In this document: positions 18,861 to 20,664 of the stretch, one piece after another
Layout: every line of letters begins with the position of its first letter
Numbering within the stretch: the first letter of the stretch is position 1
Assembly: GCA_964015495.1 (NCBI GenBank)
Contig: CAXHDG010000002.1
Coordinates: forward strand, 1,449-65,448
Direction: 5' to 3'
Length of the DNA: 64,000 nt
Source: an uncultured Magnetococcales bacterium
Lineage (GTDB): Bacteria; Pseudomonadota; Alphaproteobacteria; UBA2136; JAPKEQ01
Made by a program: the position numbers and the translations under genes
The notes under the pieces: model-generated
Told to the model about the DNA's origin: nothing
The model's database searches: none
Seen by the model: only the letters and a program-made list of their open reading frames with translations

Positions 18861-19712
18861 ATGCATAACTACGAAAACCCCCTCTTTACAAAAATTGCTG
18901 GAAAAATTGTCGAAAAAGACCGTGGTACGCCTCTTTACGAGGATTTAAACGGTAATACGATCCGAATCCCCGGGTATGGGGATGTACATGACATTTACCC
19001 GCGTAATGATGGTCAGGCTCAGCTTATTGCTGCTCTTGATCTTGGGTATGCTCTCAATCTTGTTGAGGGGCCAGAAGGGGCAGGTAAAACCTTTCTTTGT
19101 GTGGCGCACGCGATCTCTACGGAGTATCAGCGCCGCGAATTGAATGGTCAAAAGGCAAAAGGTGACTTTCGCCGCTTTGTTTTTGTAAAGCCATTGGTTG
19201 GCGCTGGTGAGGAAATTGGTACACTTCCAGGTGGGATTGGTACGAAAGTCTCACCTTCTCTGCAGGGTTTTTTTGATGCGCTTCGCCATTTCTTTGACGA
19301 TAGCTTTAATATCCCTGAAGATGACGAAAATGGGCTTTGTATCGTCCGAGTTGAAAACTTTGTTTTTGAAATTGCCCCACTTGCGTTCATGCGCGGCCGG
19401 AATATTGAGAACGCATACTTCTTCATGGATGAGTCTCAAAACACAACGTTTAGCCAGTTGATGATGTTCTGTACACGCTCTGCGGAAGGAACGATCATGT
19501 ATGTGATGGGTGACCGTAATCAGTGCGACCTGAAGCCTGTGTCAAACTCAGGTTTGCCGCAGCTTTATGAGCTGCTGGAGTATGCACCAGAGGCAACATC
19601 TCAGAAAGACTCTCATACAGCTGTACAGCTCTTTGAGTCTGAACGTTCCCCGATTGTGAAGCGCCTTGTTGCTGCTCGTGCCGCCCGTAACAAGGTTCAA
19701 GAAGGCAAATAA
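18861..19712 (+). CDS. Divergent PhoH-like P-loop ATPase
   Basis: 283 aa. VEGPEGAGKTFL (Walker A), IAPLAFMRGRNIENAYFFMDESQNTT and VMGDRNQCDL align with the canonical PhoH at 39882..40916 ([46 protein letters not shown]). It lacks the N-terminal KH-like domain of YbeZ. Confidence 0.7.
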   Translation: MHNYENPLFTKIAGKIVEKDRGTPLYEDLNGNTIRIPGYGDVHDIYPRNDGQAQLIAALDLGYALNLVEGPEGAGKTFLCVAHAISTEYQRRELNGQKAKGDFRRFVFVKPLVGAGEEIGTLPGGIGTKVSPSLQGFFDALRHFFDDSFNIPEDDENGLCIVRVENFVFEIAPLAFMRGRNIENAYFFMDESQNTTFSQLMMFCTRSAEGTIMYVMGDRNQCDLKPVSNSGLPQLYELLEYAPEATSQKDSHTAVQLFESERSPIVKRLVAARAARNKVQEGK

Positions 19713-19720
19713 ACGATTTA

Positions 19721-19753
19721 ACACACCCCCTTTTCAGGGGGTGTGTTTCTTTT
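19721..19753 (+). terminator. Rho-independent terminator
   Basis: ACACACCCCC-TTTTCA-GGGGGTGTGT perfect 10-bp hairpin followed by TTCTTTT. Confidence 0.7.
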
Positions 19754-19827
19754 GGCGTGTATAGGTCTTTTTTGCTATAGTGGCCACATCTCTTAAATCT
19801 ATCTCCCTTTTTTGAACTGGATATGTC

Positions 19828-20607
19828 ATGGCTATTGCCTTAGATGACGACCTATTGGAGAAGGCTTATTACACCAAAGGGAGTGATGAACCTAACCAAA
19901 GCGGGCACGGAGAGTGTCTGCATCATGTGTTTGAGCATTATATTAAGGCTTTACGCATCAACCCGAAGCTTAACCGGGATAGTGCGTTTAAATGCGCTCA
20001 CAAGGCGCTCCACAAATTTTTTAAGCGAGAAAACAGGAAAGGCTTTTTGAGAACCCAAAAATATGCGACTCGCCCTAATATGTGGACAGTCGCTGAAATA
20101 AAAGCTTGGGCTCTAAAATGCCTAAGGCGTTTTATTAAATGGCTAAAGGATGAGCAGATCGTATTTATTGAGGAAGAGATGTCTCTTGCCTTTGAACTCG
20201 ATCTGCCTGATGGCTCTGTGCGGGGGTTTAATCTTGGGCGATCTGATCTTGTTGCTTATAGCGCTAAAACGGGCCGGTATATCGTGATTGATCATAAAAC
20301 ATCACAAAAACAACTTGATGAAGAGCTAAAGTCTAGCGTGAAACGGCAACTGCTTAAGCATGCGCTGGGTTTACACCTGTATTTCAAAAAGAAAAAACCG
20401 CCTGTTCACCTTCTAGAGGTGGAAACTGTGGCTTTGTTTTTTGTTGTAGGGCGTGGAAGGCTGGAATTTAAGCCACGTTTTAATCAGGTCCATAACCCTT
20501 ATGAGCTTTTTCGCCGTAAAGGGGAAAAGTGGAAGCGACTCCAAACGCGTTATAAGCCCCTTGTTAAAAATTTCTCTCGGGCGCGCTATGTACCAGCAAA
20601 AAGCTAA
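19828..20607 (+). CDS. PD-(D/E)XK nuclease (RecB-family-like)
   Basis: 259 aa. Motifs FIEEEM (E), GRSDLVAY (D) and YIVIDHKTS (D-x-K), plus a downstream Q...Y-like segment (RQLLKHALGLHLY). No Cys cluster, so not Cas4-like. Confidence 0.55.
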   Translation: MAIALDDDLLEKAYYTKGSDEPNQSGHGECLHHVFEHYIKALRINPKLNRDSAFKCAHKALHKFFKRENRKGFLRTQKYATRPNMWTVAEIKAWALKCLRRFIKWLKDEQIVFIEEEMSLAFELDLPDGSVRGFNLGRSDLVAYSAKTGRYIVIDHKTSQKQLDEELKSSVKRQLLKHALGLHLYFKKKKPPVHLLEVETVALFFVVGRGRLEFKPRFNQVHNPYELFRRKGEKWKRLQTRYKPLVKNFSRARYVPAKS

Positions 20608-20629
20608 GCAAGCCTTATAGGCCAATCGA

Positions 20630-20664
20630 AAAAATAAAACCCCTCCGTTAGGAGGGGTTTTTAC
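20630..20664. terminator. Bidirectional rho-independent terminator between convergent genes
   Basis: AAAACCCCTCC-GTTA-GGAGGGGTTTT with A-tract and T-tract on either side. Confidence 0.7.

Follow-up and report, generated by a model that had tools for sequence, protein, structure and literature searches.

Whether an ATPase gene and a nuclease gene that stand side by side form a functional unit, and what such a unit would be for, is the question raised by one locus of an uncultured Magnetococcales bacterium (GenBank assembly GCA_964015495.1, contig CAXHDG010000002.1). Within the 64,000-nucleotide stretch of this contig that was analysed (the window, to which all unmarked coordinates refer), a PhoH-family ATPase gene is followed on the same strand by a RecB/Cas4-like PD-(D/E)XK nuclease gene, and the two lie directly downstream of a gene cluster resembling a type IV secretion system (T4SS). 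The host belongs to a clade of marine Alphaproteobacteria that have small genomes and for which metagenome assemblies are the only source. An earlier reading made from the letters of the window (the sequence-only reading) had recognised both genes, placed them at the edge of a mobile island and proposed a role in transfer-DNA processing, exclusion or defence. The most informative feature of the locus, which was beyond the reach of that reading, is the allelic hypervariability of the PhoH-like gene. Near-identical strains carry discrete and very divergent alleles of it, exchanged by recombination in conserved flanks.

The PhoH-like gene as a polymorphic cassette

The gene and the variable segment that coincides with most of it are as follows.

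18861..19712, plus strand: PhoH-family P-loop NTPase of 283 amino acids (aa), a stand-alone ATPase domain with an N-terminal extension of ~45 aa and two locus-specific insertions
18848..19708, plus strand: polymorphic cassette, not alignable by blastn to strains with 94-97% identical flanks

The window's own species is represented by L001, L006/L008 (the metagenome-assembled genome (MAG) 'Alphaproteobacteria bacterium ANT-120', GCA_028821995.1), L007 and L026. A second species comprises L021-L024 and L005 (MAG GCA_035092365.1), a third comprises L002-L004 and L025, with the halves of the locus on separate contigs, and two distant lineages are represented by L014-L016 with L020 and by L019, a contig of 1.78 Mb. 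The variable species is sampled by three strains, which carry three alleles. Within this species, TraC of the T4SS-like cluster and the 297-aa protein encoded directly 5′ of the PhoH-like gene are 100% identical, the nuclease is 96-98% identical and the AI-2E transporter on the far side 96%, whereas the PhoH-like proteins share 49%, 32% and 32% identity. Synonymous sites are saturated in the cassette, compared with a synonymous divergence (dS) of 0.05-0.38 in the flanking genes. Against L006/L007 the cassette extends from the ribosome binding site to the stop codon; against L001 it covers 18870..19621, homology ending at the first codons and resuming ~30 codons before the stop, as determined by blastn and boundary alignments. 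Next to the cassette, DNA identity drops from a background of ~95% to ~83% over the last 260 bp upstream and ~88% over the first 300 bp downstream, a gradient such as old, separately maintained alleles should show when recombination makes the sequence around them uniform. The alleles are not assembly artefacts, since each occurs in several independent assemblies and is contiguous with its flanks.

The L001 allele, here termed type A, shares 63-64% identity with its counterparts in the two other species. As the nuclease is 64-71% identical over the same comparisons, type A looks vertically inherited. With every type-A allele the window allele shares 49-51% identity, and that of L007 shares 32-37% with everything else. 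Both insertions are common to all three allele types and are absent from canonical PhoH and from the PhoH proteins of L014 and L019, which argues for one old, locus-specific subfamily as opposed to random captures. Recent import from compositionally foreign donors is ruled out by the host-like G+C content of the alleles, both overall and at third codon positions. Catalytic residues are retained in the alleles, as they are in the remote nuclease homologues described below. Such a pattern suggests diversifying or balancing selection of the kind typical of genes in genetic conflict.

In comparisons between species, both genes of the pair evolve several-fold faster than their neighbours, with a nonsynonymous divergence (dN) of 0.24 for the nuclease and 0.32 for the type-A PhoH-like gene, compared with 0.03 for TraC and 0.10 for AI-2E and MurJ. 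In several assemblies of the third species (the end of L025 and the start of L002; Logan SRR27540969 and sister runs), contigs stop 62 nt past the 296-aa counterpart of the 297-aa gene and the next contigs start 81 nt before the PhoH-like gene. This break lies exactly at the left edge of the variable cassette and could reflect coexisting alleles in the sampled population.

The ATPase and the nuclease

The sequence-only reading had regarded the PhoH-like product as a distinct, shorter paralogue of the canonical PhoH encoded elsewhere in the window (39882..40916, minus strand), and this is borne out. It matches Pfam family PF02562 (PhoH) with E=8.5e-38 (130.3 bits against a cut-off of 27, profile positions 2-202 of 205) and PHROG family phrog_170 (4.8e-44), is 33% identical to the canonical protein and is devoid of the ~120-aa N-terminal region of the latter. 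A profile of the PhoH-like alleles matches the solved PhoH structure 3B85 with E=7e-43. The NTPase motifs are intact, including Walker A (GxxGxGKT), Walker B (DExQN), MRGR and GDxxQxDL. Walker A reads GPEGAGKT as opposed to GPAGTGKT in the canonical protein and the third motif LAFMRGR as opposed to LAYMRGR, and GDxxQxDL is common to both. An alignment of 40 diverse PhoH proteins has 42 invariant columns, and the window allele preserves every one of them. With 98 bits against a cut-off of 380 for NCBIfam NF007827, it nevertheless falls outside the YbeZ/PhoH orthologue group. An AlphaFold2 model (predicted local distance difference test score, pLDDT, 74.5) returned 3B85 first in a Foldseek search, followed by the superfamily 1B (SF1B) helicases Nsp13 and RecD/RecD2. 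This likeness to SF1B motors agrees with the published view of PhoH domains as SF1-like single ATPase domains, for which RNA helicase activity has been demonstrated and fusion to a PIN nuclease is common (PMC7824862). From its motifs the protein looks catalytically competent, as a single RecA-like motor domain of SF1-helicase type. The canonical phoH gene is itself not beside ybeY but lies between a convergent NAD synthase gene (38114..39832) and a CHASE2-adenylate/guanylate cyclase gene (41119..43296).

The gene that follows encodes the second member of the pair.

19828..20607, plus strand: stand-alone RecB/Cas4-like PD-(D/E)XK nuclease of 259 aa without an iron-sulphur (Fe-S) cysteine cluster, assigned from PF12705 and its fold

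Its assignment to the RecB-family nucleases, also made by the sequence-only reading, holds. The protein matches PF12705 (PDDEXK_1) above the cut-off (E=2.1e-8, 34.9 bits against 22) and the exonuclease family phrog_69 (5e-8), and the catalytic residues E117, D140 and D155-x-K157 are invariant in 10 family members with identities down to 18%. A search of the nuclease profile against PDB sequences gave only noise, the informative matches coming from a fold search with an AlphaFold2 model (pLDDT 65, predicted template modelling score 0.64), in which the nuclease domains of Dna2, AdnA/AdnB, AddA, RecE, RecB and Cas4 were the best. The model thus predicts an enzyme of the kind that acts on single-stranded DNA ends. 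Regarding Fe-S cysteines, only C30 and C98 are conserved in the close family, no cysteine is invariant in the wider family and there is no C-terminal CxxC.

The nuclease family is very small and restricted to this clade. An exhaustive HMMER search of 1.84 billion protein representatives yielded 9 at E<=1e-3: its own cluster, seven short remote homologues and P0246, a repetitive 319-aa protein that is probably spurious. A word-index search found three close relatives. Neither gene of the pair is accounted for by a well-defined group of housekeeping orthologues, a possibility which the sequence-only reading had itself raised, given the nine representatives of the nuclease family and the presence of the canonical phoH gene elsewhere in the window.

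Transcription units and recurrence of the pair

Three hairpins and one promoter-like site delimit the two genes.

18758..18804, plus strand: hairpin terminator of the 297-aa gene (-24.4 kcal/mol, z=-5.9), conserved in L001 and L006
19720..19747, plus strand: terminator of the intrinsic type for the PhoH-like gene, with a perfect 12-bp stem and a trailing T-run (-22.9 kcal/mol, z=-5.1)
19752..19781, plus strand: promoter-like site of the nuclease gene, TTGGCG and TATAGT with an 18-nt spacer and an extended -10 TG, by consensus match only
20636..20661, bidirectional: hairpin terminator of the nuclease gene (plus strand) and of a convergent 84-aa open reading frame (ORF; minus strand), 11 pairs with a T-run, z about -3.5

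The first of these hairpins sits in the conserved left flank of the cassette. The second is kept in L001, L006/L007, L021 and L002, and L014, the most distant, has another sequence at the same position; counterparts of the bidirectional hairpin are found in L021, L002 and L014. The TGCTATAGT element of the promoter-like site is kept in L001, L021 and L002, with TGTTATAGT in L006/L007. Judged by these signals, the PhoH-like and nuclease genes appear to be two separate transcription units; the perfect hairpin after each gene and the separate termination of the two had both been noted in the sequence-only reading, and the promoter-like site before the nuclease gene adds to them.

The locus is present in five lineages. 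Wherever contigs span it, the order is T4SS-like cluster, 296/297-aa gene, PhoH-family gene, nuclease gene, small minus-strand ORF, AI-2E and SURF1, the exception being L019, which has the PhoH gene without the nuclease. In L014 the nuclease is 27% and the PhoH protein 34% identical to those of the window, and both the pair and its position are retained. The pair therefore co-occurs well beyond one species, as the recurrence at such divergence shows, its positional link to the T4SS-like cluster is an old one, and its coupling is not obligate. The ATPase-nuclease pairing suggested by the sequence-only reading thus stands as a recurrent adjacency in constant order, but not as a fixed association, given L019, the remote nuclease homologues P0240 and P0242, and the constancy of the nuclease when the PhoH-like gene is swapped. 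A metagenome scan with the nuclease alignment found nothing; one with the 297-aa protein recovered L019 and L020. In the literature, searched for PhoH in connection with defence, T4SS or nucleases, no description of such a PhoH and nuclease pair was found.

A resident T4SS-like cluster

The cluster upstream of the pair is encoded on one strand and was delineated by Pfam and NCBIfam matches.

17..18741, plus strand: T4SS-like gene cluster
1716..2075, plus strand: TrbC/VirB2-like pilin
4506..5243, plus strand: SLT transglycosylase
5252..7000, plus strand: UvrD-like helicase, a separate gene 12 kb upstream of the nuclease
7101..9224, plus strand: sigma-70/ParB/KorB-like helix-turn-helix protein, 707 aa
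11424..12899, plus strand: TraB/VirB10-like protein
13309..15918, plus strand: TraC/VirB4 ATPase
15922..17829, plus strand: proline-rich 635-aa protein
17848..18741, plus strand: 297-aa protein, directly 5′ of the PhoH-like gene

The sequence-only reading had taken this region for a mobile element or island, a view that the comparative data contradict. Between species, dS is 1.36 for TraC and 1.22 for the 297-aa gene, compared with 1.60 and 1.58 for the core genes AI-2E and MurJ. The dN/dS of TraC is ~0.02, and the T4SS parts share 92-96% protein identity between species; as dS is at the level of core genes, this high identity reflects strong purifying selection and not recent transfer. The junction between the cluster and the core genes is identical in all lineages and the G+C content of the cluster region is host-like. 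Pfam and NCBIfam searches of 1..18741 revealed no relaxase, type IV coupling protein or integrase, and precomputed Pfam matches showed none in 7.5 kb further upstream, the far end of the cluster not being reached. The T4SS-like cluster is a resident of the clade that is vertically inherited and not recently mobile. The only similar plasmid-borne cluster, on Comamonadaceae plasmid pOS401 (L011), is distant and has VirB4, VirB10 and UvrD-like genes in common with it; no PhoH or nuclease gene is present within the 31 kb examined there. On this evidence the pair is rejected as a core T4SS component. Carriage as plasmid cargo was also rejected, as a tblastn search of 72,556 plasmids recovered canonical PhoH only, in chromosomal-type contexts, and no match to the nuclease.

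The position of the pair invites the proposal that it is a DNA-processing accessory of the T4SS-like machine, acting in export or import (conjugation, DNA release or uptake) and possibly together with the UvrD-like helicase. In support of this proposal, the pair always lies directly downstream of the cluster on the same strand, the cluster itself encodes a UvrD-like helicase and a ParB/KorB-like DNA-binding protein, and the nuclease has the fold of helicase-coupled DNA-end nucleases. However, the machine parts TraC and the 297-aa protein are 92-100% identical where the PhoH-like protein and the nuclease are not, replacement by a 32%-identical protein is not what one expects of a factor dedicated to processing, and the pOS401 cluster manages without either gene in the region examined. 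Moreover, with no relaxase or coupling protein detected, DNA transfer by the machine is itself only putative. The proposal is considered improbable.

Alternatively, both proteins could be effectors delivered by the T4SS, whose fast evolution would come from an arms race with either a eukaryotic host or bacterial competitors. The edge of such a cluster is a frequent position for effector genes, both genes evolve fast and the PhoH-like gene is polymorphic, and two ankyrin-repeat genes lie in the same region of L014. Nevertheless, neither a secretion signal nor an effector family was identified, no pattern of an adjacent immunity gene and no variable toxin domain appeared, and the ankyrin genes are absent from the window's species; the argument is one of position only. 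Delivered effectors are considered very improbable.

A third scenario would derive the pair from a decayed prophage, as a PhoH auxiliary gene and an exonuclease. Although the best profile matches of the two proteins are indeed PHROG families (phrog_170 and phrog_69), no phage structural gene, integrase, att feature or tRNA accompanies them. A tblastn search of 50,697 phage records returned no match to the nuclease and PhoH matches of ~34% identity, no better than bacterial PhoH, and two scans of viral contigs found nothing. The locus is also syntenic and co-diverging across the clade. A phage remnant is largely refuted and has barely any probability left to it.

Comparison with known systems

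The closest parallels to a PhoH ATPase beside a nuclease are found within the PhoH family itself. The canonical PhoH/YbeZ protein belongs to the same family (PF02562), has the same invariant residues and likewise stands beside a nuclease, as YbeZ binds the RNase YbeY and shares an operon with it (PMC5101352). The typical context of canonical phoH, miaB-phoH-ybeY-corC, was observed in the comparisons. The protein of the locus differs in lacking the ~120-aa N-terminal region, in having two insertions and in having a PD-(D/E)XK neighbour instead of YbeY. Unlike the universally conserved canonical phoH, its gene is hypervariable and is flanked by a T4SS-like cluster and a nuclease gene, with no ybeY. 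In PhoH2 a PIN endoRNase is fused to a PhoH RNA helicase, and a toxin-antitoxin-like role has been described (PMC7824862). The coupling of a PhoH NTPase with a nuclease is common to PhoH2 and the locus; the locus, however, has no fusion and its nuclease has the fold of DNA-end nucleases. Membership of PhoH2 is not supported, as there is no PIN match in Pfam and the NF053827 score is 33 bits against a cut-off of 680.

RecBCD, AddAB, AdnAB, Dna2 and Nhi offer a second parallel, in that they combine a nuclease domain of this fold with an SF1-type motor. In these enzymes the motor consists of two RecA-like domains and is fused to or stably complexed with the nuclease, whereas the locus encodes a single-domain ATPase and a nuclease in separate genes and, it appears, on separate transcripts. 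The nuclease is not a RecB, AddA or AdnA polypeptide, because it is a stand-alone protein of 259 aa without a fused UvrD-like helicase. Dna2, AddB and Cas4 have the cysteines of an Fe-S cluster, which the nuclease of the locus does not; in particular, it lacks the four-cysteine motif of Cas4, and no cas genes or CRISPR array lie nearby. Nhi is a fused nuclease-helicase immunity protein.

Among defence systems, Gabija (GajA/GajB) and Hachiman (HamA/HamB) combine an NTPase with a nuclease and turn over rapidly between strains. The locus resembles them in composition and in such turnover, but its genes are not in one operon and neither protein significantly matches the Gabija or Hachiman models. 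Only the separate UvrD-like helicase of the cluster matches GajB models, a generic UvrD similarity. The comparison with defence catalogues was made with PADLOC-DB v2, which dates from 2023, and a role in defence as the sequence-only reading had entertained it found no counterpart there: the window proteins gave E-values of 0.004 or worse and the nucleases no match. Other PhoH-like alleles gave weak partial matches to the SF1 motifs of Nhi and AbiO (E from 1e-5 to 1e-3, over ~55 residues for Nhi). A known defence system is rejected on this basis, PADLOC having been run on all alleles and on the remote homologues without a significant match.

A proposed conflict-driven module, or unrelated neighbours

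The polymorphism of the PhoH-like gene suggests a role in genetic conflict rather than in housekeeping. Alleles swapped between near-identical strains differ as much as the PhoH proteins of different bacterial phyla while their catalytic residues remain intact, and this combination points to selection by an antagonist. It is proposed tentatively, at somewhat less than even confidence, that the two genes form a conflict-driven accessory module of ATPase and nuclease that would act on single-stranded nucleic-acid ends. The motor-plus-nuclease mechanism is suggested by the helicase-coupled fold of the nuclease, the SF1-like PhoH motor and the recurrent adjacency of PhoH with nucleases (PIN-PhoH, YbeZ-YbeY). 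According to this model, the PhoH-like protein would be an ATP-driven translocase or unwindase that engages single-stranded nucleic acid, and the nuclease its end-processing partner; together they may restrict or process foreign or transferred nucleic acid, a function of the defence or exclusion type. The module would work as a split, minimal form of a nuclease with an SF1 motor, following the logic of Dna2, Nhi and RecBCD or that of the PhoH2 and YbeZ-YbeY pairings. Of the two, the ATPase would be the one that faces the antagonist, which would explain its variability. While the anatomy and population genetics of the locus are well supported, functional coupling and target remain proposals.

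Several observations weigh against this model. L019 keeps PhoH but has no nuclease, and unrelated proteins of 386 aa and 586 aa, neither with a P-loop, are encoded upstream of the remote nuclease homologues P0240 and P0242. The two genes appear as separate units, each with its own terminator. The nuclease remains 96-98% identical where its PhoH-like partner has been replaced by a 32%-identical allele, and such constancy argues against a tight, co-evolving complex. Hypervariability is seen in one species only, on the evidence of three strains with three alleles, and three strains of the second species carry PhoH-like alleles that are 98-99% identical. Two PhoH positions that are otherwise invariant are substituted in the L001 allele (R178L and D223Y), a possible sign of relaxed constraint. 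Finally, the weak partial matches to the SF1 motifs of Nhi and AbiO are all that the defence catalogue returned.

Many of these observations would be accounted for if the two genes were unrelated neighbours, the PhoH-like protein being a paralogue of RNA metabolism under relaxed constraint and the nuclease an independent enzyme of repair or recombination, their adjacency historical. The separate promoters and terminators, the absence of the nuclease from L019 and of PhoH from the surroundings of its remote homologues, its constancy beside swapped alleles and the substituted L001 allele are all consistent with this view, as is the RNA-related biology known for PhoH (PMC7824862, PMC5101352). However, adjacency and order persist down to 27% identity of the nuclease and 34% of PhoH, and both genes are unusually fast in comparison with their neighbours. 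Relaxed constraint also leaves unexplained the discrete allele classes, the breakpoints at the ends of the coding sequence, the intact catalytic residues of the window allele and the gradient of divergence in the flanks. Mere neighbourhood is judged rather unlikely, but it is the strongest of the alternatives.

The conflict-driven module can be framed more narrowly as a new two-gene immunity or exclusion system linked to the resident T4SS-like machine, in which the PhoH motor would be the part that confers specificity and is exposed to the antagonist, and its alleles an ancient balanced polymorphism of discrete forms exchanged through recombination in the flanks. In this specific form the proposal is unlikely. 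Few bacterial and phage proteins without a clear cellular role are as widespread as the PhoH-family ATPases, whose biochemistry is poorly defined beyond the RNA helicase activity reported for PhoH2. If an antagonist does select on the alleles, this would hint at what PhoH-type motors recognise, and the locus offers a natural allele series for experiments on specificity; if the immunity or exclusion system is real, it would give the family, which is widespread in marine phages too, a first conflict-related role and a tractable assay. If the coupling is fortuitous, what remains is two fast-evolving, orphan-like genes of limited interest. An unusual, vertically inherited T4SS-like cluster without a recognisable relaxase or coupling protein is also documented in small-genome marine Alphaproteobacteria.

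Neighbouring genes and further features of the window

The composition of the cluster is an unusual mix, with F-type-like TraC and TraB, a TrbC-type pilin, a UvrD-like helicase and the 707-aa sigma-70/ParB/KorB-like protein, and many of its proteins have no family match. In L026, another assembly of the same strain type, it extends at least 7.5 kb further upstream, a region (1..10000 of L026) that encodes a 1070-aa collagen-like protein and a protein with a faint prepilin N-methyl match. The 635-aa protein is rich in proline, alanine and lysine, has a single central hydrophobic segment and varies in length among lineages (631, 673-698 and 869 aa); between species it is 64-76% identical, compared with 92-96% for its neighbours.

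Among the three strains the 297-aa protein does not vary (100% identity), and in the most distant lineages its identity is 58-61%. Searches of Pfam, NCBIfam, PHROG and PDB sequences gave no match to it. Its only plasmid match, between its C-terminal half and a segment of a 2461-aa Agrobacterium plasmid protein (36%, E=9e-14), is uninformative. A resemblance to NusA (N-terminal domain, S1 and KH), which had been an impression from the sequence, was supported by neither the Pfam nor the PDB sequence search.

To the right of the pair lies the small convergent ORF.

20684..20938, minus strand: conserved 84-aa ORF, convergent with the nuclease gene and kept in all lineages examined

Its product is unchanged in L006/L007 (100% identity) and shares 38-89% identity with its counterparts in other lineages, and it is present in L018 and even in L019, which lacks the nuclease. 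Family searches with it returned matches at noise level only (AbiEi, E=0.015; phrog_5006, E=0.0095). Beyond it are core genes (AI-2E transporter, SURF1, MurJ, MutS, SNase and AdoHcyase). In L006/L007, L002 and L019 a gene for an EAL-domain cyclic di-GMP phosphodiesterase stands between this ORF and the AI-2E gene. It has been deleted in the window strain (20941..21167), which retains a remnant of ~36 codons (21046..21153), and the region to the right of the nuclease is thus also plastic. L014 has an insertion between the small ORF and the AI-2E gene (9243..10719 of that contig), made up of two ankyrin-repeat genes and an RND efflux pump; the ankyrin genes are a hint that at least some members of the clade may live in association with a host.

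Rfam and tRNA scans of the 64-kb window found no RNA element and no tRNA. The G+C content of the window is uniform. Further along, its minus strand contains a very long ORF of 1613 aa (30684..35525).

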